A stretch of DNA of 10,342 nt, from the IMG/VR virus record IMGVR_UViG_2663763154_000010, one strand, 5' to 3'. Below the pieces are notes generated by a model. That model was not told the origin of the DNA and ran no database searches. It saw nothing but the letters and a program-made list of their open reading frames with translations. Of this stretch, positions 1 to 10,342 are shown in pieces. Numbering within the stretch: the first letter of the stretch is position 1; each line of letters opens with the position of its first letter. The DNA comes from a virus. Its lineage: Duplodnaviria; Heunggongvirae; Uroviricota; Caudoviricetes. A program made the position numbers and the translations under genes.

Positions 1-516
1 CTGACTCATTTGAGTGGAAAGGATGTTGCCGGTCTTCTCGCATACCTTGGTTTGGGAGAAGGTTCTGCATTACCTGTTGGTGCGCCTGTTCCGTGGCCTT
101 CTGAGACACCTCCAACAGGCTGGATGAAATGCAACGGTGCGGTTTTTTCTGCTGAAGAATACCCGGAACTGGCAAAGGCTTATCCGACAAATAAATTGCC
201 TGATTTACGAGGTGAATTTATTCGTGGCTGGGATGACGGGCGTGATGTTGATAGTGGACGCGCTTTATTAAGCGAACAACTTGACGCTATGCAAAATGTT
301 ACGGGTTCTCTGATTGATAACACTATGGGGTCAGCTTCCTCAGCATCTGGAGTTTTTAATGTTGGTTCTAGTTCTGGGGTTAAATATGCCGCTCCATCAA
401 CTGGTAATGCATTTAGTTACTATGGTGTGACACTTGATTTATCCAGGAGTGCAAGAACATCAGCAGAAACAAGGCCACGTAACATTGCATTTAACTACAT
501 TGTAAGGGCAGCATGA
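1..516 (+). CDS. H: Tail fibre protein, C-terminal part (5' end lies upstream of the window); the variable receptor-binding domain in the currently expressed orientation
   Basis: Frame 1 is open from the window edge to TGA at 514-516. The translation ends ...TRPRNIAFNYIVRAA, a C-terminal signature recalled from Mu S / P1 S / P2 H-type fibres. The stop overlaps the start of the downstream assembly gene (ATGATG). Confidence 0.85.
   Translation: MTHLSGKDVAGLLAYLGLGEGSALPVGAPVPWPSETPPTGWMKCNGAVFSAEEYPELAKAYPTNKLPDLRGEFIRGWDDGRDVDSGRALLSEQLDAMQNVTGSLIDNTMGSASSASGVFNVGSSSGVKYAAPSTGNAFSYYGVTLDLSRSARTSAETRPRNIAFNYIVRAA
35..60. repeat. Left crossover site of the invertible segment (gix/hix/pix-like 26-bp site)
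   Basis: TTCTCGCATACC-TT-GGTTTGGGAGAA: two imperfect 12-bp half-sites fitting the TTCTCnnAAACC pattern around a central TT dinucleotide. Its distal 14 bp (47-60) are the exact inverted repeat of 1868-1881. Confidence 0.7.
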
Positions 517-1124
517 TGACCACAAAAAAAATCACTTTGGATGAAAACGGATTTGCCACAGAGGCTGGCTTCATTACCGTTTACAACTACAACGGAGAAA
601 CGCGGGAATATATTTCCATATCAACTGAATATCTTGCGGTTGGCGTCGGTATCCCGGCATGTTCTTGTTTAGATGCACCAGTTACACATAAGGCTGGTTA
701 TGCAATCTGCCGTTCTGCAGATTTTAACTCATGGGAATATGTGCCAGACCATCGCGGTGAAATCGTCTTTAGCACCGAAACAGGAGAATCAAAAGAAATC
801 ACAGCTCCGGGTGATTACCCTGATAATACAACCACTATCGCCCCGTTAACACCATACGATAAATGGGATGGTGAGAAATGGGTGACGGATACCGATGCAC
901 AGCATAGCGCCGCAGTAGATGCAGCAGAAGCACAACGCCAGTCGCTGATTGATACTGCAATGGCTTCCATCAGTCTGATTCAACTGAAATTGCAGGCCGG
1001 GCGGAAGCTGACGCAGCCAGAAAACACCCGACTTAACGCTGTGCTGGATTACATTGACGCGGTGACGGCAACAGATACCAGCACCGCGCCGGATGTCATC
1101 TGGCCTGAACTGCCGGAGGCGTAG
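513..1124 (+). CDS. Tail fibre assembly protein (chaperone for the + orientation fibre)
   Basis: 203-aa ORF translationally coupled to the fibre gene (ATGA overlap), with AAGGG 5 nt upstream. The C-terminal region ...DTAMASISLIQLKLQAGRKLTQPENTRLNAVLDYIDAVTATDTSTAPDVIWPELPEA resembles the Tfa/gpG/Mu U family C-terminus. Confidence 0.85.
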   Translation: MMTTKKITLDENGFATEAGFITVYNYNGETREYISISTEYLAVGVGIPACSCLDAPVTHKAGYAICRSADFNSWEYVPDHRGEIVFSTETGESKEITAPGDYPDNTTTIAPLTPYDKWDGEKWVTDTDAQHSAAVDAAEAQRQSLIDTAMASISLIQLKLQAGRKLTQPENTRLNAVLDYIDAVTATDTSTAPDVIWPELPEA

Positions 1125-1515
1125 GCCATTCAATATCGAGTGCTGTTAAAGTATTAATACGCATCAATAGCACGCGATATTTTTTCCATGCCAGTAACAG
1201 TTTCGTTTCATCATCTGTTGCCATACCTAAATCAACCGCATCCTGAAGCGGCGCTATTACATTCGTTGCCTCTGCTATCAGTGCAGATTTCTTTTCATCA
1301 TTTATTAAGGCTAATTGTTCTGGTGTTGGAGAAGGACGGTCAACAATGACAGGGTGACCGTTCTCACCACAGGTAATCATTTTTGTTACACTCTGTGAGT
1401 TAATCAGTGTTTTCCACTCTGATTCCGAGATTTCCACTGCATCATCAGGAATATTGGTGCCGTGAAATTCAGTCGAATAAAATCCGTTTGTCGATGCAGA
1501 ATAAAAATATGACAT
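1096..1515 (-). CDS. Alternative tail fibre assembly protein (for the inverted orientation)
   Basis: The - strand ORF ends ...MATDDETKLLLAWKKYRVLLMRINTLTALDIEWPTPPAVQAR, matching the Tfa family C-terminus. The start is placed at the Met of MSYFYSASTNGFY (ATG at 1513-1515), 4 nt after the stop of the upstream silent fibre cassette. In-frame starts at 1548, 1563 and 1611 are possible, so the 5' end is uncertain. Confidence 0.7.
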   Translation of the reverse strand: MSYFYSASTNGFYSTEFHGTNIPDDAVEISESEWKTLINSQSVTKMITCGENGHPVIVDRPSPTPEQLALINDEKKSALIAEATNVIAPLQDAVDLGMATDDETKLLLAWKKYRVLLMRINTLTALDIEWPTPPAVQAR

Positions 1516-1519
1516 TTCG

Positions 1520-1881
1520 TTAATATCCCATTGCAATGTAATACGCATCAGCAGATGAACCATATCCTGAACCGGGCGACACTGTAATATTAAATCCAGT
1601 GTTATGGACATTTGTCGCCGATACAGTCGGCTGCCCTGACGCGCCAGTAACGTTCAATGTAACTGTGACAGCAAGGACTCTTGAGAATGTCATCGGGAAC
1701 CTCATCCCGTATGTTGAAGATACATTCGGGGAGCCATTCAACTGACCGCACTGTAAAATTAATCCAGACGGAAATTTTTGCGCAGCAGCCGTTGCGGTAT
1801 TACTTGACGCGAACAGGCTCATATCAGGTATCTGATTCGCCCCTGTACCTACATTCCTTTTAGCCGCTTCTCCCAAACCAA
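1520..1881 (-). CDS. Silent alternative tail fibre C-terminal cassette (expressed only after inversion fuses it to the constant N-terminal part of the fibre gene)
   Basis: The - strand frame is open from the right crossover site to TAA at 1520-1522. It encodes GLGEAAKRNVGTGANQIPDMS...YYIAMGY. The GLGE codons at the crossover are identical to those at the left site, and the core dinucleotide occupies codon positions 2-3 in both, so inversion gives an in-frame fusion. Confidence 0.75.
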
Positions 1882-1893
1882 CGTTTATGAAAA
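1868..1893. repeat. Right crossover site of the invertible segment
   Basis: TTCTCCCAAACC-AA-CGTTTATGAAAA; the first 14 bp are the exact reverse complement of 47-60. The central AA is the complement of the left-site TT, as expected for sites in inverted orientation. Confidence 0.7.
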
Positions 1894-1948: not shown

Positions 1949-2542
1949 ATGCTTATTGGCTATGTACGCGTGTCAACAAATGACCAGAACACGGAATTGC
2001 AGCGTAATGCGCTGGAGTGTGCAGGATGTGAGCTGATTTTTGAGGATAAAATCAGCGGCACGAAGTCTGACCGACCGGGACTGAAAAAACTGCTCAGAAC
2101 ATTATCAGCAGGTGACACTCTGGTAGTCTGGAAGCTGGACAGGCTGGGGCGTAGTATGCGGCATCTGGTCATTCTGGTTGAGGAACTGCGCGAACGCGGC
2201 GTTAATTTTCGCAGCCTGACAGATGCTATTGATACCAGCACGCCGATGGGGCGTTTTTTCTTTCATGTGATGGGTGCCCTGGCAGAAATGGAGCGAGAAC
2301 TCATTGTCGAGCGGACACGCGCCGGACTGGAAGCAGCCAGAGCCAAAGGTCGTATTGGTGGCAGACGACCGAAACTCACCACGAGTGAGTGGGAGCAGGT
2401 CGGACGGTTGCTGGCTGCGGGGGAATCTCGTCAACGTGTGGCGCTGATTTTTGATATTGGCCTGTCCACGCTCTATAAAAAATTCCCCTCATCAGCGACA
2501 AAGAATAAATTGTGTCATCCCTTAGCCAACCGGGACAAATAG
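1949..2542 (+). CDS. Site-specific DNA invertase, serine recombinase (Gin/Hin/Pin/Cin family)
   Basis: The translation from the third Met, MLIGYVRVSTNDQNTELQRNAL...GRRPKLT...STLYKKFP, has the resolvase/invertase N-terminal catalytic domain with the active-site Ser in the YVRVS motif and a C-terminal helix-turn-helix. AGGGGG lies 7 nt upstream of the ATG at 1949. The ORF track start at 1943 is too close to that RBS. Confidence 0.93.
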   Translation: MLIGYVRVSTNDQNTELQRNALECAGCELIFEDKISGTKSDRPGLKKLLRTLSAGDTLVVWKLDRLGRSMRHLVILVEELRERGVNFRSLTDAIDTSTPMGRFFFHVMGALAEMERELIVERTRAGLEAARAKGRIGGRRPKLTTSEWEQVGRLLAAGESRQRVALIFDIGLSTLYKKFPSSATKNKLCHPLANRDK

Positions 2543-2601
2543 CCTGACATCTCCGGCACAACTGAAAATACCACTCACCTATTAACCACGGAGTTAAACG
2601 G

Positions 2602-3792
2602 ATGAGTGACTATCATCACGGCGTGCAGGTGCTGGAGATTAACGACGGCACCCGCGTCATTTCCACCGTATCCACCGCCATTGTCGGCATGGTCTGCACA
2701 GCCAGCGATGCGGATGCGGAAACCTTCCCCCTCAATAAACCGGTGCTGATTACCAATGTGCAGAGCGCAATTGCAAAGGCCGGTAAAAAAGGCACGCTGG
2801 CGGCATCGTTGCAGGCCATCGCCGACCAGTCAAAACCGGTCACCGTTGTCGTGCGTGTGGAAGATGGCACCGGTGACGACGAGGAAACGAAACTCGCGCA
2901 GACCGTTTCCAATATCATCGGCACCACCGACGAAAACGGTCAGTACACCGGACTGAAAGCCCTGCTGGCGGCGGAATCGGTAACCGGTGTTAAACCGCGT
3001 ATTCTCGGCGTGCCGGGACTGGACACCAAAGAGGTGGCTGTTGCACTGGCATCAGTCTGTCAGAAGCTGCGCGCTTTCGGGTATATCAGCGCATGGGGCT
3101 GTAAAACCATTTCCGAGGTGAAAGCCTACCGCCAGAATTTCAGCCAGCGTGAGCTGATGGTCATCTGGCCGGATTTCCTCGCATGGGATACGGTCAGCAG
3201 CACCACCGCCACCGCGTATGCCACCGCCCGTGCGCTGGGGCTGCGCGCTAAAATCGACCAGGAGCAGGGCTGGCATAAAACGCTGTCCAATGTCGGGGTA
3301 AACGGTGTTACCGGCATCAGTGCCTCTGTATTCTGGGATTTGCAGGAGTCCGGCACCGATGCTGACCTGTTGAACGAGTCAGGTGTCACAACGCTGATTC
3401 GCCGTGACGGTTTCCGCTTCTGGGGTAACCGTACCTGCTCGGATGACCCGCTGTTCCTTTTTGAAAACTATACCCGCACCGCGCAGGTGCTGGCCGACAC
3501 GATGGCTGAGGCGCACATGTGGGCGGTGGACAAGCCCATCACTGTAACGCTGATTCGCGACATCGTTGACGGCATCAATGCCAAATTCCGTGAGCTGAAA
3601 ACAAACGGCTATATCGTGGATGCGACCTGCTGGTTCAGCGAAGAATCCAACGATGCGGAAACCCTCAAGGCCGGAAAACTGTATATCGACTACGACTATA
3701 CACCGGTGCCTCCTCTTGAAAACCTGACCCTGCGCCAGCGTATTACCGATAAATACCTGGCAAATCTGGTCACCTCGGTTAACAGCAATTAA
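2602..3792 (+). CDS. FI: Contractile tail sheath protein
   Basis: 396 aa, the same length as P2 gpFI. The N-terminus MSDYHHGVQVLEINDGTRVISTVSTAIVGMV is recalled from P2-family sheath proteins. GGAG RBS; position upstream of FII-E-T-U-D. Confidence 0.95.
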   Translation: MSDYHHGVQVLEINDGTRVISTVSTAIVGMVCTASDADAETFPLNKPVLITNVQSAIAKAGKKGTLAASLQAIADQSKPVTVVVRVEDGTGDDEETKLAQTVSNIIGTTDENGQYTGLKALLAAESVTGVKPRILGVPGLDTKEVAVALASVCQKLRAFGYISAWGCKTISEVKAYRQNFSQRELMVIWPDFLAWDTVSSTTATAYATARALGLRAKIDQEQGWHKTLSNVGVNGVTGISASVFWDLQESGTDADLLNESGVTTLIRRDGFRFWGNRTCSDDPLFLFENYTRTAQVLADTMAEAHMWAVDKPITVTLIRDIVDGINAKFRELKTNGYIVDATCWFSEESNDAETLKAGKLYIDYDYTPVPPLENLTLRQRITDKYLANLVTSVNSN

Positions 3793-3804
3793 GGAGCCTG
3801 ACCG

Positions 3805-4323
3805 ATGGCAATGCCGCGCAAACTCAAGTTAATGAACGTCTTTCTGAACGGCTACAGCTATCAGGGCGTCGCGAAGTCCGTCACGCTACCAAAACTGACC
3901 CGTAAGCTCGAAAACTATCGCGGTGCGGGGATGAACGGCAGCGCACCGGTAGACCTCGGCCTTGATGACGATGCGCTGTCAATGGAGTGGTCGCTCGGTG
4001 GCTTCCCGGATTCGGTTATCTGGGAGCTTTACGCCGCAACCGGTGTGGATGCCGTGCCGATTCGTTTTGCAGGCTCTTACCAGCGCGACGATACCGGCGA
4101 AACGGTGGCCGTCGAAGTGGTCATGCGTGGACGTCAGAAAGAAATCGACACCGGTGAGGGTAAACAGGGTGAAGACACCGAGTCGAAAATCTCCGTAGTC
4201 TGCACCTATTTCCGGCTGACGATGGACGGTAAGGAGCTGGTCGAAATCGACACCATCAACATGATTGAGAAGGTGAACGGCGTCGACCGGCTGGAGCAAC
4301 ACCGCCGCAATATCGGCCTGTAA
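3805..4323 (+). CDS. FII: Tail tube protein
   Basis: 172 aa with AAGGAG RBS, immediately after FI. The N-terminus MAMPRKLKLMNVFLNGYSYQGVAKSVTLPKL matches P2 gpFII. Confidence 0.95.
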   Translation: MAMPRKLKLMNVFLNGYSYQGVAKSVTLPKLTRKLENYRGAGMNGSAPVDLGLDDDALSMEWSLGGFPDSVIWELYAATGVDAVPIRFAGSYQRDDTGETVAVEVVMRGRQKEIDTGEGKQGEDTESKISVVCTYFRLTMDGKELVEIDTINMIEKVNGVDRLEQHRRNIGL

Positions 4324-4379: not shown

Positions 4380-4655
4380 ATGAACAAAGAAAATGTGATT
4401 ACCCTGGACAATCCGGTCAAGCGTGGTGAGCAGGTCATCGAACAGGTCACGCTGATGAAACCCAATGCCGGGACGCTGCGCGGTGTCAGTCTGGCAGCGG
4501 TCGCGAACTCCGAAGTCGATGCACTGATTAAGGTGCTGCCGCGCATGACGGCACCGATGCTGACCGAGCAGGAAGTCGCCGCGCTGGAACTGCCTGACCT
4601 TGTGGCGCTGGCCGGTAAGGTGGTCGGTTTTTTGTCGCCGAACTCGGTGCAGTGA
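4380..4655 (+). CDS. E: Tail assembly chaperone E (zero-frame product)
   Basis: 91-aa ORF between the tube and tape-measure genes. It contains the slippery heptamer TTTTTTG at 4628-4634, 7 codons before its stop. Confidence 0.9.
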   Translation: MNKENVITLDNPVKRGEQVIEQVTLMKPNAGTLRGVSLAAVANSEVDALIKVLPRMTAPMLTEQEVAALELPDLVALAGKVVGFLSPNSVQ

Positions 4656-4807
4656 CGTTTCCGAAAAATCTGTCGGTCGATGACCTGATGGCGGATGTGG
4701 CAGTGATATTTCACTGGCCGCCATCAGAACTGTATCCCATGAGCCTGACCGAACTCATCACATGGCGCGAAAAGGCGCTCCGGCGAAGCGGAAACACGAA
4801 TGAGTAA
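4380..4807 (+). CDS. E+E': Tail assembly chaperone E+E' (programmed -1 translational frameshift product; slip at 4628-4634)
   Basis: The -1 frame downstream of T6G is open to TAA at 4805-4807 and encodes VAELGAVTFPKNLSVDDLMADVAVIFHWPPSELYPMSLTELITWREKALRRSGNTNE. The predicted fusion is 142 aa, and the E' end overlaps the start of T, as recalled for P2. Confidence 0.8.
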
Positions 4808-7247
4808 CAATGTAAAATTACAGGTATTACTCAGGGCAGTTGACCAGGCATCCCGCCCGTTTAAATCCATCCGTGCAGCGAGCAAATCGCTGTCGGGGGA
4901 TATCCGGGAAACACAAAAATCACTGCGCGAGCTGAACGGTCAGGCATCCCGTATTGAGGGATTTCGCAAGACCAGTGCACAGCTCGCCGTGACTGGTCAT
5001 GCACTTGAAAAGGCTCGGCAGGAAGCCGAAGCCCTTGCCACACAGTTTAAAAACACCGAACGTCCGACCCGTGCTCAGGCGAAAGTGCTGGAATCCGCAA
5101 AGCGTGCGGCGGAGGACTTACAGGCGAAATATAACCGCCTGACGGATTCCGTTAAACGCCAGCAGCGGGAACTGGCCGTTGTGGGAATTAATACCCGCAA
5201 TCTTGCACGTGATGAGCAGGGACTGAAAAACCGTATCAGTGAAACCACCGCACAGCTTAACCGTCAGCGTGATGCGCTGGCGCGTGTCAGTGCGCAACAG
5301 GCAAAACTTAACGCAGTAAAACAGCGTTATCAGGCAGGCAAGGAACTGGCCGGAAATATGGCCTCGGTGGGCGCTGCCGGTGTGGGGATTGCGGCGGCGG
5401 GAACGATGGCCGGAGTTAAGCTGCTGATGCCCGGTTATGAGTTTGCGCAGAAAAACTCAGAATTGCAGGCCGTGCTCGGAGTGGAAAAAGACTCCGCCGA
5501 AATGACCGCACTACGCAAACAGGCGCGCCAGCTCGGCGACAATACCGCCGCCTCGGCGGATGATGCGGCCGGTGCACAGATAATCATCGCGAAAGCGGGT
5601 GGGGATGTTGATGCCATTCAGGCGGCAACGCCGGTCACGCTGAATATGGCGCTGGCGAACCGCCGCACGATGGAAGAAAACGCCGCCCTGCTGATGGGGA
5701 TGAAATCCGCCTTTCAGCTTTCAAACGATAAGGTCGCTCATATCGGGGATGTTCTCTCCATGACGATGAACAAAACCGCCGCCGATTTTGACGGCATGAG
5801 CGATGCGCTGACCTATGCCGCACCTGTGGCAAAAAATGCCGGTGTCAGCATTGAAGAAACCGCCGCAATGGTCGGGGCGCTGCATGATGCAAAAATCACA
5901 GGCTCAATGGCGGGGACGGGAAGCCGTGCCGTGTTAAGCCGCCTGCAGGCACCGACGGGAAAAGCATGGGATGCACTCAAAGAGCTTGGAGTGAAAACCT
6001 CAGACAGCAAGGGAAACACCCGGCCAATATTTACCATTCTGAAAGAAATGCAGGCCAGTTTTGAGAAAAACCGGCTCGGTACTGCCCAGCAGGCTGAATA
6101 CATGAAAACTATTTTCGGGGAGGAGGCCAGCTCAGCCGCCGCCGTGCTGATGACTGCCGCCTCAACCGGAAAGCTGGACAAACTGACCGCTGCGTTTAAA
6201 GCCTCAGACGGGAAGACCGCAGAGCTGGTAAATATCATGCAGGACAACCTCGGCGGTGACTTTAAGGAGTTTCAGTCCGCTTATGAGGCGGTGGGGACTG
6301 ACCTGTTTGACCAGCAGGAAGGCGCACTGCGTAAGCTCACACAGACGGCCACAAAGTATGTGTTAAAACTCGACGGCTGGATACAGAAAAACAAATCACT
6401 GGCGTCAACCATTGGCCTCATTGCCGGTGGCGCGCTGGCGCTTACTGGCATCATCGGTGCCATTGGTCTTGTAGCCTGGCCGGTTATCACCGGTATCAAT
6501 GCCATCATCGCGGCAGCAGGCGCAATGGGGGCAATCTTCACGACGGTTGGCAGTGCCGTTATGACGGCCATCGGGGCGATTAGCTGGCCGGTTGTGGCCG
6601 TGGTGGCCGCTATTGTCGCCGGGGCGTTACTTATCCGTAAATACTGGGAGCCTGTCAGCGCATTCTTTGGCGGTGTGGTTGAAGGGCTGAAAGCGGCATT
6701 TGCGCCGGTGGGGGAACTGTTCACGCCACTTAAGCCGCTGTTTGACTGGCTGGGTGAAAAGTTACAGGCCGCGTGGCAGTGGTTTAAAAACCTGATTGCC
6801 CCGGTTAAAGCCACCCAGGACACCCTGAACCGTTGCCGTGACACGGGCGTCATGTTCGGGCAGGCACTGGCTGACGCGCTGATGCTGCCGCTTAATGCGT
6901 TCAACAAACTGCGCAGCGGTATTGACTGGGTACTGGAAAAACTCGGTGTTATCAACAAAGAGTCAGACACACTTGACCAGACCGCCGCAAGGACTCATGC
7001 CGCCACGTATGGCACCGGTGGTTATATTCCGGCGACCAGCTCTTATGCAGGTTATCAGGCTTATCAGCCAGTCACGGCACCGGCTGGCCGCTCTTATGTG
7101 GACCAGAGTAAAAACGAATATCACATCAGCCTGACGGGTGGTACTGCGCCGGGGACACAGCTTGACCGCCAGTTACAGGATGCACTCGAAAAATACGAGC
7201 GGGATAAACGTGCGCGCGCCCGTGCCAGCATGATGCATGACGGTTAA
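4800..7247 (+). CDS. T: Tail tape measure protein
   Basis: 815 aa, the same length as P2 gpT. The N-terminal region is rich in Q/R/A/L/E, consistent with coiled coil. There is a long Gly/Ala/Ile-rich hydrophobic block (about 6400-6660) and a C-terminal domain. It follows the E/E' frameshift pair as in other tail modules. Confidence 0.95.
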   Translation: MSNNVKLQVLLRAVDQASRPFKSIRAASKSLSGDIRETQKSLRELNGQASRIEGFRKTSAQLAVTGHALEKARQEAEALATQFKNTERPTRAQAKVLESAKRAAEDLQAKYNRLTDSVKRQQRELAVVGINTRNLARDEQGLKNRISETTAQLNRQRDALARVSAQQAKLNAVKQRYQAGKELAGNMASVGAAGVGIAAAGTMAGVKLLMPGYEFAQKNSELQAVLGVEKDSAEMTALRKQARQLGDNTAASADDAAGAQIIIAKAGGDVDAIQAATPVTLNMALANRRTMEENAALLMGMKSAFQLSNDKVAHIGDVLSMTMNKTAADFDGMSDALTYAAPVAKNAGVSIEETAAMVGALHDAKITGSMAGTGSRAVLSRLQAPTGKAWDALKELGVKTSDSKGNTRPIFTILKEMQASFEKNRLGTAQQAEYMKTIFGEEASSAAAVLMTAASTGKLDKLTAAFKASDGKTAELVNIMQDNLGGDFKEFQSAYEAVGTDLFDQQEGALRKLTQTATKYVLKLDGWIQKNKSLASTIGLIAGGALALTGIIGAIGLVAWPVITGINAIIAAAGAMGAIFTTVGSAVMTAIGAISWPVVAVVAAIVAGALLIRKYWEPVSAFFGGVVEGLKAAFAPVGELFTPLKPLFDWLGEKLQAAWQWFKNLIAPVKATQDTLNRCRDTGVMFGQALADALMLPLNAFNKLRSGIDWVLEKLGVINKESDTLDQTAARTHAATYGTGGYIPATSSYAGYQAYQPVTAPAGRSYVDQSKNEYHISLTGGTAPGTQLDRQLQDALEKYERDKRARARASMMHDG

Positions 7248-7261
7248 GGAGGTGACGAAAA

Positions 7262-7741
7262 ATGATGCTCGCGTTAGGTATGTTTGTTTTTATGCGCCAG
7301 ACGCTGCCACACCAGACCATGCAGCGTGAATCAGATTATCGCTGGCCGTCAAATTCCCGTATCGGTAAACGGGATGCCTTTCAGTTTCTCGGTGTTGGCG
7401 ATGAAAACATCACGCTTGCCGGTGTGCTTTATCCTGAACTGACCGGCGGAAAGCTGACGATGACCACGCTCAGGCTGATGGCAGAGGAAGGCCGGGCGTG
7501 GCCGTTGCTGGATGGCACCGGCATGATTTACGGCATGTATGTCATCAGCAAGGTGAGTGAAACAGGGAGTATTTTCTTTGCAGACGGCACACCCCGAAAA
7601 ATTGATTTTACGCTGTCGCTCACCCGTGTTGATGAATCACTGGCCGCGCTTTATGGCGATATCGGTAAACAGGCGGAATCGCTCATCGGTAAGGCTGGCA
7701 GTATGGCGGCTAAATTCACGGGTATGACGGGGGCGGAATAA
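7262..7741 (+). CDS. U: Tail protein U
   Basis: 159 aa with AGGAGG RBS. The sequence MMLALGMFVFMRQTLPHQTMQRESDYRWPSNSRIGKRDAFQF matches P2 gpU. Its stop overlaps the D start (TAATG). Confidence 0.95.
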   Translation: MMLALGMFVFMRQTLPHQTMQRESDYRWPSNSRIGKRDAFQFLGVGDENITLAGVLYPELTGGKLTMTTLRLMAEEGRAWPLLDGTGMIYGMYVISKVSETGSIFFADGTPRKIDFTLSLTRVDESLAALYGDIGKQAESLIGKAGSMAAKFTGMTGAE

Positions 7742-8904
7742 TGCTGGATGCGCGGACATTTTATGCAGGCAGTACGCTGACGCCGGATTACATGCTGATG
7801 CTCGACAGCAGGGATATTACCGGCAATATCAGCGACCGTCTGATGAGCATGACCCTGACGGATAACCGGGGCTTTGAGGCTGACCAGCTTGATATTGAAC
7901 TGAACGATGCCGACGGGCAGGTCGGGCTGCCGGTTCGTGGCGCTGTCCTGACGGTGTATATCGGCTGGAAAGGTTTTGCCCTGGTATGCAAAGGGAAATT
8001 TACCGTTGATGAGGTTGAACACCGGGGCGCGCCGGATGTGGTCACCATCCGTGCCCGGAGTGCAGATTTTCGCGGGACGCTCAATTCCCGCCGGGAAGGC
8101 TCATGGCATGACACCACGCTCGGTGCGATTGTTGAGGCGATAGCCTCCCGTAACAGGCTGGAAGCCAGTGTCGCTCCGTCACTGGCAGGAATTAAAATCC
8201 CGCACATCGACCAGTCGCAGGAGTCTGATGCGAAATTCCTGACCCGTCTTGCAGAACGCAACGGCGGTGAGGTCTCGGTAAAAATGGGAAAACTGTTGTT
8301 TCTCAAAGCGGGGCAGGGGGTGACGGCCAGTGGTAAAAAAATCCCGCAGATTACCATCACCCGCAGCGACGGCGACCGTCATCATTTTGCGATTGCTGAC
8401 CGTGGAGCTTACACCGGCGTAACGGCAAAGTGGTTACACACCAAAGACCCGAAGCCGCAAAAGCAGAAGGTAAAACTGAAACGCAAAAAGAAAGAGAAAC
8501 ACCTGCGCGCACTGGAGCACCCGAAAGCGAAACCGGTCACGCAGAAGAAAGCGCCAAAAGTACCGGAAGCGCGCGAAGGTGAATACATGGCCGGTGAGGC
8601 TGACAACGTTTTTGCACTGACCACGGTATATGCCACGAAAGCACAGGCCATGCGCGCCGCTCAGGCGAAGTGGGACAAACTGCAACGGGGTGTGGCGGAG
8701 TTCTCCATCAGCCTGGCTACCGGTCGGGCAGATATTTACACGGAAACACCGGTTAAAGTGTCAGGCTTTAAGCGCGTCATAGACGAGCAGGACTGGACAA
8801 TCACTAAGGTGACACATTTTCTGAATAATAGCGGCTTCACGACGTCCTTAGAGCTTGAGGTCAGGCTTTCTGATGTGGAGTACGAAACAGAAGATGATGA
8901 GTGA
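7741..8904 (+). CDS. D: Tail protein D (late control gene D family)
   Basis: 387 aa, the same length as P2 gpD. Translationally coupled to U. Contains the family's Lys-rich low-complexity linker (KPQKQKVKLKRKKKEKHLRALEHPKAKPVTQKKAPK). Confidence 0.95.
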   Translation: MLDARTFYAGSTLTPDYMLMLDSRDITGNISDRLMSMTLTDNRGFEADQLDIELNDADGQVGLPVRGAVLTVYIGWKGFALVCKGKFTVDEVEHRGAPDVVTIRARSADFRGTLNSRREGSWHDTTLGAIVEAIASRNRLEASVAPSLAGIKIPHIDQSQESDAKFLTRLAERNGGEVSVKMGKLLFLKAGQGVTASGKKIPQITITRSDGDRHHFAIADRGAYTGVTAKWLHTKDPKPQKQKVKLKRKKKEKHLRALEHPKAKPVTQKKAPKVPEAREGEYMAGEADNVFALTTVYATKAQAMRAAQAKWDKLQRGVAEFSISLATGRADIYTETPVKVSGFKRVIDEQDWTITKVTHFLNNSGFTTSLELEVRLSDVEYETEDDE

Positions 8905-8985: not shown

Positions 8986-9204
8986 ATGTTTCATTGTCCT
9001 TTATGCCAGCATGCCGCACATGCGCGTACAAGCCGCTATATCACTGACACGACAAAAGAGCGTTATCACCAGTGTCAGAACGTGAATTGCAGCGCCACGT
9101 TCATCACCTATGAGTCGGTACAGAGATACATCGTGAAGCCGGGAGAAGTCCACGCCGTAAGGCCGCACCCGTTGCCGTCAGGGCAGCAAATTATGTGGAT
9201 GTGA
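8986..9204 (+). CDS. ogr: Ogr, zinc-finger transcriptional activator of late genes
   Basis: 72 aa starting MFHCPLCQHAAHARTSRYITDTTKERYHQCQNVNC, with the C-X2-C-X22-C-X4-C zinc-binding arrangement. GAGG lies 8 nt upstream of ATG 8986. The longer ORF from 8923 is an upstream in-frame extension, and 8923-8951 is better read as the promoter. Confidence 0.9.
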   Translation: MFHCPLCQHAAHARTSRYITDTTKERYHQCQNVNCSATFITYESVQRYIVKPGEVHAVRPHPLPSGQQIMWM

Positions 9205-9212
9205 TCACAAAA

Positions 9213-9240
9213 ATAGCCCCTCAGTTGAGGGGCTTTATTT
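9213..9240 (+). terminator. Rho-independent terminator after ogr
   Basis: Perfect 8-bp GC-rich stem AGCCCCTC (9215-9222) / GAGGGGCT (9227-9234) with a 4-nt loop, followed by TTATTT. Confidence 0.7.
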
Positions 9241-9247
9241 ATGGTCG

Positions 9248-9267
9248 ATGTGGACGCTATGTGGACA
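9248..9267 (+). repeat. Two direct repeats ATGTGGAC spaced 11 bp apart; candidate integrase arm-type binding sites
   Basis: ATGTGGAC at 9248-9255 and 9259-9266 (the second extends to TGTGGACA at 9260-9267), between the ogr terminator and host DNA, where the P' arm of a P2-type att site is expected. Confidence 0.4.
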
Positions 9268-9332
9268 GCGGTTGACATAAATCCATTTATATCATCAGGT
9301 TAGGTGCTTTTTTGTGACACCATCCCTGTCTT

Positions 9333-9358
9333 CCCCCACATGATGTGGGGTTTTTTTT
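9333..9358 (+). terminator. Rho-independent terminator, probably the host cpxP 3' UTR / CpxQ terminator
   Basis: Stem CCCCACA (9334-9340) / TGTGGGG (9344-9350) with a 3-nt loop, followed by T8 (9351-9358). Confidence 0.7.
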
Positions 9359-9439
9359 ATCCTCAATTTGCCTGCTGCTTAATGCATTGCAGATGATTTG
9401 CTTCCGTTATACTAGCGTCAGTTGATAGCGGGAGTATTT

Positions 9440-10342
9440 ATGAATCAATCTTATGGACGGCTGGTCAGTCGGGCGGCGATTGCTGCGACGGCGATGGCTT
9501 CGTTGCTATTGCTGATTAAAATTTTTGCATGGTGGTATACCGGGTCGGTGAGTATTCTCGCCGCGCTGGTGGATTCGCTGGTGGATATCGGCGCGTCGTT
9601 GACGAATTTACTGGTGGTGCGATATTCCCTGCAACCTGCCGACGATAATCACTCGTTTGGTCACGGTAAAGCTGAGTCCCTCGCGGCGCTGGCGCAAAGT
9701 ATGTTTATCTCCGGTTCGGCACTATTCCTGTTTTTGACGGGTATTCAACATCTGGTATCTCCAACACCGATGACAGATCCAGGCGTCGGGGTTATCGTGA
9801 CAATTGTGGCGCTAATTTGTACGATTATCCTTGTCTCGTTTCAGCGGTGGGTGGTGCGCCGGACGCAAAGCCAGGCGGTGCGGGCTGATATGCTACATTA
9901 CCAGTCTGATGTTATGATGAACGGCGCAATTCTGCTGGCGCTGGGGTTGTCTTGGTACGGCTGGCATCGCGCCGATGCTCTGTTTGCATTGGGAATCGGC
10001 ATCTATATTTTATATAGCGCGTTACGCATGGGATATGAGGCGGTACAGTCATTACTGGATCGCGCATTGCCTGATGAAGAACGGCAAGAAATTATTGATA
10101 TCGTGACTTCCTGGCCGGGTGTTAGCGGCGCTCACGATCTTCGCACGCGGCAGTCAGGGCCGACCCGCTTTATTCAGATTCATTTGGAAATGGAAGACTC
10201 TCTGCCTTTGGTTCAGGCACATATGGTGGCGGATCAGGTAGAGCAGGCTATTTTACGGCGTTTTCCGGGATCGGATGTGATTATCCATCAGGACCCCTGT
10301 TCCGTCGTACCCAGGGAGGGTAAACGGTCTATGCTTTCATAA
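9440..10342 (+). CDS. fieF: Cation diffusion facilitator family Fe2+/Zn2+ efflux transporter FieF (YiiP)
   Basis: 300 aa starting [59 protein letters not shown], recognised as E. coli FieF. GGGAG lies 5 nt upstream of ATG 9440. The ORF track start at 9422 is a TTG extension. Confidence 0.93.

Follow-up and report, generated by a model that had tools for sequence, protein, structure and literature searches.

The window analysed here, a single 10.3-kb stretch of DNA, shows the late gene order of P2-type phages: H, fibre assembly, FI sheath, FII tube, E/E+E', T, U, D and ogr. Its open reading frames match, gene for gene, the annotated sheath, tube, GpE, tape-measure, D-family and OgrK features of a related prophage locus (L002) that is 96.5% identical to the window, and the tail genes flanking the region of interest are intact in the list of open reading frames. 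Moreover, a serine invertase gene and its flanks match Peduovirus pro483. Taken as one reading, it is highly probable that the window represents the late-gene right arm of an E. coli P2-like prophage, integrated beside fieF, and that a Pin/Gin-type inversion module separates the tail-fibre gene H from the sheath gene.

Two fibre ends and their chaperones

The 3' end of the P2-type tail-fibre gene H occupies 1..516 of the + strand. The gene is cut off by the left edge of the window, and its constant part stops at position 48. From the GLGE motif to the stop codon, the expressed variable C-terminus (Sv) comprises 155 aa and contains a phage tail collar domain (Pfam Collar PF07484, E = 1.1e-15), with T4 gp37 and short tail fibres as its PDB relatives. 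Full-length homologues of the fibre gene are present in two related loci, L002 and L003. On the - strand, at 1520..1881, lies a silent alternative C-terminus (Sv') of 119 aa from GLGE, which ends in YYIAMGY; both lengths are close to the values of about 156 and 120 aa given in a first-pass annotation of this DNA. Sv' carries a gp53-like C-terminal, lectin-like domain (Pfam Gp53-like_C PF21882, E = 4.7e-14) and is near-identical to the tail-fibre end that Shigella phage SfIV expresses. A PDB sequence search with this gp53-like end returned no match.

The same annotation had described the two C-termini as unrelated beyond the junction. This is confirmed by their membership in different Pfam families and by the lack of significant similarity between them (best BLASTP E = 0.09), and the two ends may recognise different receptors. 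Near-identical ends serve different phages, namely HK97 (Stf-like) and SfIV. Among complete E. coli genomes, the last ~60 codons of the collar-type end diverge from the closest silent copies, and full-length DNA matches to the gp53-like tip are at most 92.6% identical. The - strand open reading frame that contains Sv', as called mechanically, spans 1921-1520 and begins at an ATG at 1921, outside the invertible segment. Whichever copy is silent always gains an ATG-initiated reading frame (MMPVARYLCIFINV...) from the fixed flank, and there is a slight possibility that a free receptor-binding fragment is made from it at a low level.

Each variable end is accompanied inside the segment by its own Caudo_TAP gene, which is a trait of switches of the Mu G, P1 C, e14 P and p15B Min type. 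The tail-fibre assembly chaperone for the collar-type end is encoded at 513..1124 on the + strand (203 aa; Pfam Caudo_TAP PF02413, E = 1.5e-32), in a region with ~95% DNA identity to HK97 stf-tfa. The chaperone for the alternative end is encoded at 1096..1515 on the - strand (139 aa from the ATG at 1515; Caudo_TAP, E = 6.7e-30). The two genes are convergent and their 3' ends overlap by 29 bp, as in tfaP/tfaE of e14. An exact-protein look-up with the 203-aa chaperone, uninformative on orientation, retrieved only two contigs, a decayed prophage and a 1.1-kb fragment.

Crossover sites, invertase and candidate enhancer

The segment is bounded by two 26-bp crossover sites, a left one at 35-60 (TTCTCGCATACC TT GGTTTGGGAGAA, central dinucleotide 47-48) and a right one at 1868-1893 (TTCTCCCAAACC AA CGTTTATGAAAA, central dinucleotide 1880-1881). 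They lie in inverted orientation and their cores match, AA being TT on the other strand. Both are imperfect palindromes in which 12-bp half-sites flank a 2-bp core, as is characteristic of Hin/Gin/Cin/Pin (Din) sites. When the 10.3-kb window was scanned with the palindromic consensus TTCTCnnAAACCnnGGTTTnnGAGAA, allowing at most 3 mismatches, only these two places were detected, against 0 expected from 200 shuffles; the same consensus scan also detects the Mu gix sites. No third crossover site was found in the window even at up to 5 mismatches, and a shufflon-like multi-inversion arrangement was therefore rejected for the window.

The left site has an identical copy in four related prophage loci (L001-L004) and in pro483, and the right site is identical at 26/26 positions to the E. 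coli K-12 e14 site adjoining pinE, the e14 sites having been taken straight from the K-12 record. Only the two inner half-sites match TTCTCnnAAACC exactly; the left outer half-site has 1 mismatch (ATACC) and the right outer half-site, read as TTTTCATAAACG, has 2. The first-pass statement that three of the four half-sites fit is therefore approximate, holding strictly for the two inner ones, and the right outer half does deviate, though the term "degenerate" overstates this.

Beyond the right site, at 1949..2542 on the + strand, lies the gene for a serine DNA invertase of the Hin/Gin/Cin/Pin group (197 aa), with a Resolvase domain (Pfam E = 2.8e-52) and a C-terminal helix-turn-helix, HTH_7 (E = 4.8e-13). 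The catalytic serine is residue 9, within MLIGYVRVSTNDQ, a motif conserved relative to Mu Gin. The length of ~190 aa, the N-terminal catalytic domain with a serine at ~9-10 and the C-terminal helix-turn-helix are those of the Din family. The protein matches the Mu Gin structure 3uj3 over residues 1-182 (E = 1e-93), and the Hin DNA-binding domain also matches it. It is 86% identical to PinE, ~76% to Mu Gin and 76-79% across Mu Gin and P1 Cin, 98.5% to the copy in L001, and 97.5-98% to those of phages pro483 (97.5%) and MET_P1_103_31. None of the five proteins searched had an NCBIfam match above the curated cut-off, and the invertase matched distant large-serine-recombinase or Mpi models below cut-off only; the family assignment therefore rests on Pfam, PDB and direct comparison with PinE, Gin and Cin. 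A consensus scan found no sigma-70-like promoter for either the invertase or the silent copy, a scan that is uninformative on this point.

A candidate recombinational enhancer is located at 1967..2038, inside the 5' end of the invertase gene. It contains two Fis-like 15-mers that are 48 bp apart (1971-1985, TGTCAACAAATGACC; 2019-2033, GTGCAGGATGTGAGC), both of which are present at the same gene positions in pinE and gin. Additionally, 1967..2038 aligns with nucleotides 19-90 of P1 cin, annotated in the P1 record as the Cin enhancer. The assignment is thus a putative one, by position and motif conservation; as the motifs lie in coding sequence, their conservation would be expected anyway and alone proves nothing.

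The junction and its two orientations

An exact inverted repeat of 15 bp (47-61 paired with 1867-1881), the left arm of which, TTGGTTTGGGAGAAG, encodes (L)GLGE, spans the core and the inner half-sites. On the + strand, CTT 46-48 lies in frame 1 of the fibre reading frame, and on the - strand, GTT (the complement of 1882-1880) is codon 14 of the reading frame 1921-1520. The central TT therefore occupies codon positions 2-3 on both strands, as had been claimed in the first-pass annotation. In-silico inversion and translation produced an intact in-frame fusion, ...AYLGLGEAAKRNVG...YYIAMGY, that is, ...AYL-GLGEAAKRNVG...YYIAMGY. The exact swap predicted earlier (...AYL-GLGEAAKR...YYIAMGY) is thereby reproduced, and it is also seen in natural sequences. 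All exchange points from 47 to 61 gave one identical product in silico, so that the frame is independent of the exact position of the core, and sequence comparison cannot place the exchange point or its mode within the 15 bp. Consequently, the earlier proposal that a crossover elsewhere would leave the fusion out of frame applies only outside the repeat, where shared sequence is lacking, and not to 47-61.

The flipped arrangement exists naturally. In E. coli WP3-S18-ESBL-09 and in phage pro483, the two sites are the same but the configuration is the opposite one, with the predicted junction: the fibre gene reads ...AYLGLGEAAKRDVG... and the silent copy adjoining the invertase reads ...FINVGLGEGSALPVG.... 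Natural fused fibre reading frames of 399 aa are present in L001 and pro483. Comparison of the O157:H7 strains TW14359 and SS52 revealed an inversion; its breakpoints in the alignment overlap nowhere but within the 15-bp repeat. Queries representing the two orientations were covered over at least 80% of their length by 123 and 117 complete E. coli genomes, respectively; the orientations are thus about equally common among related prophages.

For the cassette of the window itself, the exact predicted 43-nt recombinant junction was found in 4 IMG/VR viral contigs, which match the in-silico inverted window over 108 nt at 95-99%; an exact scan of genome_contigs for the same 43 nt gave 0 matches. 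Searches of complete E. coli genomes did not find the exact cassette pair of the window in one orientation or the other. In these genomes, the right junction has no end-to-end match of high identity, be it in its current form or as inverted in silico, the best full-length match to the current one being 92.6% identical. Sequencing has demonstrated inversion of tail-fibre segments in e14 and in E. coli P2-like prophages, with additional PCR evidence for e14 (PMC4272514), and an invertase with inversion of adjacent genes has been noted at the P2 Z/fun hotspot (bioRxiv 10.1101/2024.10.15.618418).

A proposed two-state host-range switch and its known relatives

Taken together, we are confident that the 1.8-kb segment is an inversion switch of the Gin/Pin type, predicted to act on host range, by which the constant part of H would be joined to either of two receptor-binding ends. 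In the proposed mechanism, invertase dimers would bind both 26-bp sites (35-60 and 1868-1893), presumably with the help of an enhancer that binds Fis and lies inside the 5' end of the invertase gene, and on which inversion may depend. By analogy with the known systems, the invertase would cut at the central TT/AA with a 2-bp stagger; rotation of half the synaptic complex, followed by religation, would leave 49-1879 flipped. The inner half-sites and the core form a 15-bp repeat, and as both strands encode (L/V)GLGE there with one common phase, the constant part of H would be joined in frame. In the present state (state 1), H would be expressed with the collar-type end and its chaperone; in state 2, it would be expressed with the gp53-like, lectin-type end and that end's own chaperone. 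The unused end would lie, promoterless, next to the invertase gene. With H joined to one end or the other, a lysogen population would release phage with two different receptor-binding tips, a form of bet-hedging on host range, provided that this particular lysogen does switch.

The arrangement could in principle reflect chance or general recombination. A short inverted repeat between unrelated reading frames has, if given, a 1-in-3 chance of shared phase; however, two consensus sites were found where none was expected in the window, e14, Mu, pro483 and many prophages show the same junction, phase and GLGE/GLQE motif, and the recombinant junctions occur in nature, so that coincidence is refuted for practical purposes. 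Equally negligible in our estimate is inversion by general RecA-dependent homologous recombination between the inverted repeats, with the recombinase gene being incidental. Exact inverted repeats would suit such a route, as any exchange inside them leads to the same product, but the identical stretch is only 15 bp, far below the efficient length for RecA-mediated recombination. Moreover, this repeat lies inside two palindromes of 26 bp of the hix/gix/cix/pix type beside a Gin/Pin orthologue, which is the defining layout of site-specific inversion.

The switch might instead be a fossil, locked without meaningful inversion and retaining the second C-terminus as a mere remnant; possible causes are that the invertase gene is silent, that the left or the right outer half-site is weak, or that the prophage is defective. 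No recognisable sigma-70 promoter was found by the scan upstream of the invertase, and the outer half-sites are 1 and 2 positions off the consensus. Decayed modules do exist: SfIV retains a fibre end, a chaperone and a truncated opposite chaperone beside an IS, without an invertase. In the window, however, the invertase frame is intact with its catalytic motif and nearly identical to the copies in L001, pro483 and MET_P1_103_31, both variable ends and both chaperone genes are intact, and so are the flanking tail genes. Related prophages that occur in both orientations have the very same two sites, and the right site is that of e14, which inverts in K-12 cultures (PMC4272514). We therefore regard a fossil as very unlikely, although somewhat less so than the two preceding explanations, and retain the Gin/Pin-type switch as the preferred reading.

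The architecture of the switch is already known, being the standard Gin/Cin/Pin layout and reported in P2-like prophages, and the discovery value is small: the analysis confirms that the prophage carries a standard two-state tail-fibre switch, which is probably functional. Nevertheless, there are practical consequences. The orientation of the segment is a phase-variable state and should be mistaken neither for a difference between strains nor for a fault of assembly. One of the orientations is mislabelled by automatic annotation, which splits an intact fibre gene into an "incomplete" pseudogene and a separate gp53-like coding sequence. The conserved L-GLGE crossover site also marks the border of a module, where P2-like, lambdoid and Mu-like phages exchange their fibre tips, and is useful for host-range prediction or engineering. 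More speculatively, and with little confidence, the pairing of an HK97-Stf-like collar end, whose last ~60 codons have no close match in complete E. coli genomes, with an SfIV-type lectin end might open two host groups to a single P2-like phage. Unrelated phages otherwise serve such groups, e.g. surface types of E. coli and Shigella flexneri.

The G segment of Mu, the C segment of P1 and the P segment of e14 are the textbook systems of this kind. The e14 P (pin) segment has the same order as the window, with a fibre constant part, Sv, tfa, tfa', Sv' and invertase (stfP/tfaP - tfaE/stfE - pinE), and likewise places the core at codon positions 2-3, followed by GLGE. Its left site shares the core and the inner half with that of the window but differs in the outer half (CTCTCGAAAACC in e14 versus TTCTCGCATACC in the window). 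The silent end of e14, ...GLGEGSALPVG..., is of the same collar type as the expressed end of the window; e14 pairs this type with a GLGEGAKLNAA end, whereas the window pairs it with a GLGEAAKRNVG end. stfE is annotated as a pseudogene in K-12, and the host element of e14 is a defective lambdoid prophage rather than a P2-like myovirus.

Closer in backbone and in the position of the module between fibre and sheath genes are pro483 and the P2-like prophages at the Z/fun hotspot of O157:H7 TW14359 and SS52 and of EPEC E2348/69. In such invertase-bearing relatives both crossover sites are identical to those of the window, and both orientations occur among strains. They differ from the window only in the distal alleles of the fibre tip, as the cassettes are mosaic. 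One EPEC prophage has three sites and three alternative ends (PMC4272514), compared with two in the window.

The Hin/hix system of Salmonella uses the same recombinase family and 26-bp sites whose core is 2 bp long, and its enhancer, to which Fis binds, lies within the 5' end of the recombinase gene (PMC3798978); unlike the window, this system flips a promoter, carries the recombinase gene inside the segment and involves no in-frame protein fusion. Mu G/Gin and P1 C/Cin share with the window a serine invertase, 26-bp imperfect palindromic sites and alternative S/S' ends, each with its own chaperone (U or U'). The equivalent 26-bp sites of Mu and P1 have, at their centre, the annotated G-segment boundary and the annotated crossover, respectively, and P1 has its enhancer annotated within the 5' end of the invertase gene, comparable to the candidate in the window. 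In contrast, the half-site sequences of Mu and P1, their variable ends and the phages themselves differ, the core dinucleotide of Mu is TC/GA, the segments are longer (~3 kb in Mu and ~4.2 kb in P1, versus 1.8 kb), and P1 cin lies on the opposite side relative to the fibre gene. In Mu the core again occupies positions 2-3 of a Leu codon, followed by GLQE. The window agrees with e14, Mu and pro483 in core phase and GLGE/GLQE junction; being common to e14 and Mu, the codon phase and the L-GLGE/GLQE junction look like a shared feature of the family.

Composition of the inversion module

The window holds the late genes in the right arm of a P2-like E. coli prophage that adjoins the chromosomal gene fieF (9422-10342). 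The + strand carries ORFs for the 3' end of tail-fibre gene H (1-516, open at the left edge) and a tail-fibre assembly gene (513-1124), and the - strand carries a second assembly gene (1096-1515) and a fibre-like ORF of 133 aa (1520-1921). The recombinase gene (1949-2542) lies beyond them on the + strand, as do the ORFs for sheath (2602-3792), tube (3805-4323), E/E+E' (4380-4807), tape measure (4800-7247), U (7262-7741), D (7741-8904) and ogr (ending at 9204). The whole window is matched at at least 80% coverage by 334 complete E. coli genomes, the best matches being about 96-97% identical with the same annotated genes and with fieF/pfkA adjoining. The prophage end falls between ogr and fieF (9205-9421), where two terminator-like hairpin-plus-T-run sequences (CCCCTCAGTTGAGGGGCTTTATTT and CCCCACATGATGTGGGGTTTTTTTT) are found and where the attachment-site junction presumably also lies. 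In P2-like phages, a programmed -1 frameshift yields E+E'; GGTTTTTTG at 4626-4634, a short distance 5' of where the gpE-like ORF (4380-4655) stops, and the overlapping ORF that comes after it (4652-4807) fit such an event.

In the recombinase, which contains Resolvase and HTH_7 domains, residues 1-182 align with the Mu Gin of known crystal structure (E = 1e-93) and MLIGYVRVSTNDQ is conserved. Identity is 86% to K-12 PinE, 76% to Gin and 97.5-98% to the pro483 and MET_P1_103_31 phage invertases. This Gin/Pin orthologue directly adjoins the right crossover site. A scan with the 26-bp palindromic consensus, allowing up to three mismatches, found only two places in the window, the left site (35-60, TTCTCGCATACC TT GGTTTGGGAGAA) and the right site (1868-1893, TTCTCCCAAACC AA CGTTTATGAAAA), which bears out the positions in the first-pass annotation. 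The chance expectation was 0.00 from 200 shuffles, and relaxing the scan to five mismatches revealed no further site in the window. Both sites are of the hix/gix/cix/pix type, in inverted orientation and with matching non-palindromic cores. The site observation is confirmed except for the count of three half-sites out of four fitting TTCTCnnAAACC, which was generous: the two inner halves fit exactly, but the outer halves carry one (left) and two (right) mismatches.

The expressed fibre end carries a phage tail collar domain whose relatives are fibres of the T4 gp37/gp12 type and, together with its chaperone gene, shares about 95% DNA identity with HK97 stf-tfa. The silent end has a gp53-like C-terminal domain and is near-identical to the tail-fibre end that Shigella phage SfIV expresses. 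From GLGE to stop they span 155 and 119 aa, close to the earlier estimates of about 156 and 120, and similarity between them is undetectable (best BLASTP E = 0.09), in line with the impression that they are unrelated. Behind each end comes a separate Caudo_TAP chaperone gene. The two genes converge and share 29 bp at their 3' ends on opposite strands (1096-1124), an overlap also seen in e14 tfaP/tfaE (3018-3046 in the K-12 e14 record). Only the two distal-tip alleles stand out in this prophage as somewhat unusual. Outside the right site, the fixed flank (1882-1921) supplies an ATG and 13 codons, MMPVARYLCIFIN, and then the Val codon spanning the core; therefore, any end in the silent position forms an ATG-initiated ORF. 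In public genomes, this silent ORF is annotated as a separate CDS.

Predicted in-frame inversion and natural occurrence of both orientations

As first proposed, the core falls at codon positions 2-3 in either frame: the + strand fibre frame reads CTT as a codon at 46-48, and in the - strand ORF codon 14 is GTT (complement of 1882-1880). Inversion of 49-1879 in silico gave the predicted in-frame fusion, ...LTHLSGKDVAGLLAYL-GLGEAAKRNVGTGANQ...YYIAMGY*, and left ...FINV-GLGEGSALPVG... beside the recombinase gene. Exact complementarity extends over 15 bp (47-61 versus 1867-1881), and every exchange point from 47 to 61 gave one identical product. The frame is preserved because this repeat has the same reading phase on both strands; the expected fusion was therefore correct, but the core's place within the codon is not its cause.

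Both states occur naturally. The E. coli WP3-S18-ESBL-09 locus (L001) is in the flipped state with two sites identical to those of the window; its intact fibre ORF of 399 aa reads ...AYLGLGEAAKRDVG... and its silent copy MMPVARYLCIFINVGLGEGSALPVG..., an arrangement shared by phage pro483. At at least 80% coverage, 117 genomes match this region as found and 123 match it when flipped in silico. Moreover, the O157:H7 TW14359 and SS52 prophages are collinear in both flanks with the middle inverted at 98.7% identity, and the only overlap between their alignments is the 15-bp repeat. The predicted 43-nt junction of the window cassette, TCGCATACCTTGGTTTGGGAGAA + GCGGCTAAAAGGAATGTAGG, is exact in four IMG/VR viral contigs, which match the inverted window at 95-99% over 108 nt; the same scan did not find it in the species-representative genome collection.

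In flipped-state genomes (L001 2506-3705 and the related prophage locus L004 1607-2806), RefSeq annotation breaks the fibre gene into an 'incomplete, missing C-terminus' pseudogene and a 'gp53-like domain-containing protein' CDS of its own. The split is an artefact of annotating a phase-variable state, the L001 ORF being intact. In E. coli TUM11352 (H81, H95), both the chromosome and an 88-kb plasmid bear related modules, which were in opposite orientations relative to their own invertase genes when sequenced. An IMG/VR contig (L015) carries the final 61 nt of the constant fibre part, left outer half-site included, as two inverted copies (1017-1077 and 2918-2978), one joined to a collar-type end and the other to an AAKRNVG-type end; it may contain several sites or a pair of fibre genes that face each other. 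In the E. coli strain 571 locus, the inner half of the right site (5871-5896) is TTCTCCAAAACC and accordingly the silent copy reads GFGE, not GLGE; the inner half of the left site differs, being TTCTCCCAAACC, so inversion would swap a mismatch between the sites.

Proposed mechanism and alternative explanations

By analogy with Hin (PMC3798978), invertase dimers would synapse at a Fis-bound enhancer, make a 2-bp staggered cut at the central dinucleotide, rotate and religate. In support of a central crossover, the G-segment boundary annotated for Mu falls in the middle of the 26-bp gix sites that the consensus scan found, and the crossover annotated for P1 coincides with the middle of cixL. Two Fis-like 15-mers (1971-1985 and 2019-2033) lie exactly 48 bp apart and recur at matching gene positions in pinE and gin, although coding sequence such as this would be conserved in any case. 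They fall in the stretch aligning with cin nucleotides 19-90, annotated as enhancer in the P1 record, and it is this position that points to a candidate enhancer in the invertase gene.

Taken together, our data support the interpretation of an invertible tail-fibre switch. That the segment is a locked fossil that no longer inverts is improbable, since all components are intact and its sites match exactly those of prophages seen in both states. RecA-mediated exchange between the repeats deserves hardly any weight, as identity spans 15 bp. A chance arrangement of repeat and phase is just as negligible and is excluded by the two consensus sites against a zero expectation, the TW14359/SS52 breakpoints in the repeat, the 43-nt junction in the four contigs, and the codon phase and GLGE/GLQE junction common to e14, Mu, pro483 and related prophages.

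Relic modules and known inversion systems

The SfIV tail fibre (2491-4061 of its locus) ends ...LENLGLGEAAKRNVG...YYIAMGY, near-identical to the silent end of the window, and is followed by its chaperone gene and a truncated opposite-strand chaperone gene abutting an ISEhe3 copy. One crossover-like site (3759-3784) is kept without an invertase, and the region resembles a decayed inversion module locked in a single orientation. HK97, a phage without an invertase, carries a relic crossover-like site in stf (1995-2020, CTCGCACAAACC TT GGTTTGGGAGAA) at ...TNLGLGEGSALPVG...; its homology to the window begins at position 41, within the left site, and the site therefore also bounds horizontally exchanged fibre modules.

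In e14, the site next to pinE is identical to the right site of the window (26/26), and the left site has the core and inner half in common with the window's left site. The core lies at codon positions 2-3 in e14, Mu, pro483 and all fetched related prophages, as in the window; therefore, this phase is a feature shared by the switch family, and it is probably inherited rather than peculiar to this locus. The core codon is Leu in the expressed fibre genes, and in silent copies it is Val in e14 and P2-like prophages and Leu in Mu; it is followed by GLGE, or GLQE in Mu. The textbook cases are Mu G, P1 C, p15B Min and e14 P; canonical P2 is not known to carry this module. Inversion has been shown by sequencing for the e14 segment, whose variants were also confirmed by PCR, and for the tail-fibre segments of two EPEC P2-like prophages, one with two variants and the other with three alternative C-termini (PMC4272514). 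A recent survey describes a DNA invertase and inversion of adjacent genes at the P2 Z/fun hotspot (bioRxiv 10.1101/2024.10.15.618418). This kind of system was already known, and hundreds of sequenced E. coli prophages carry it.
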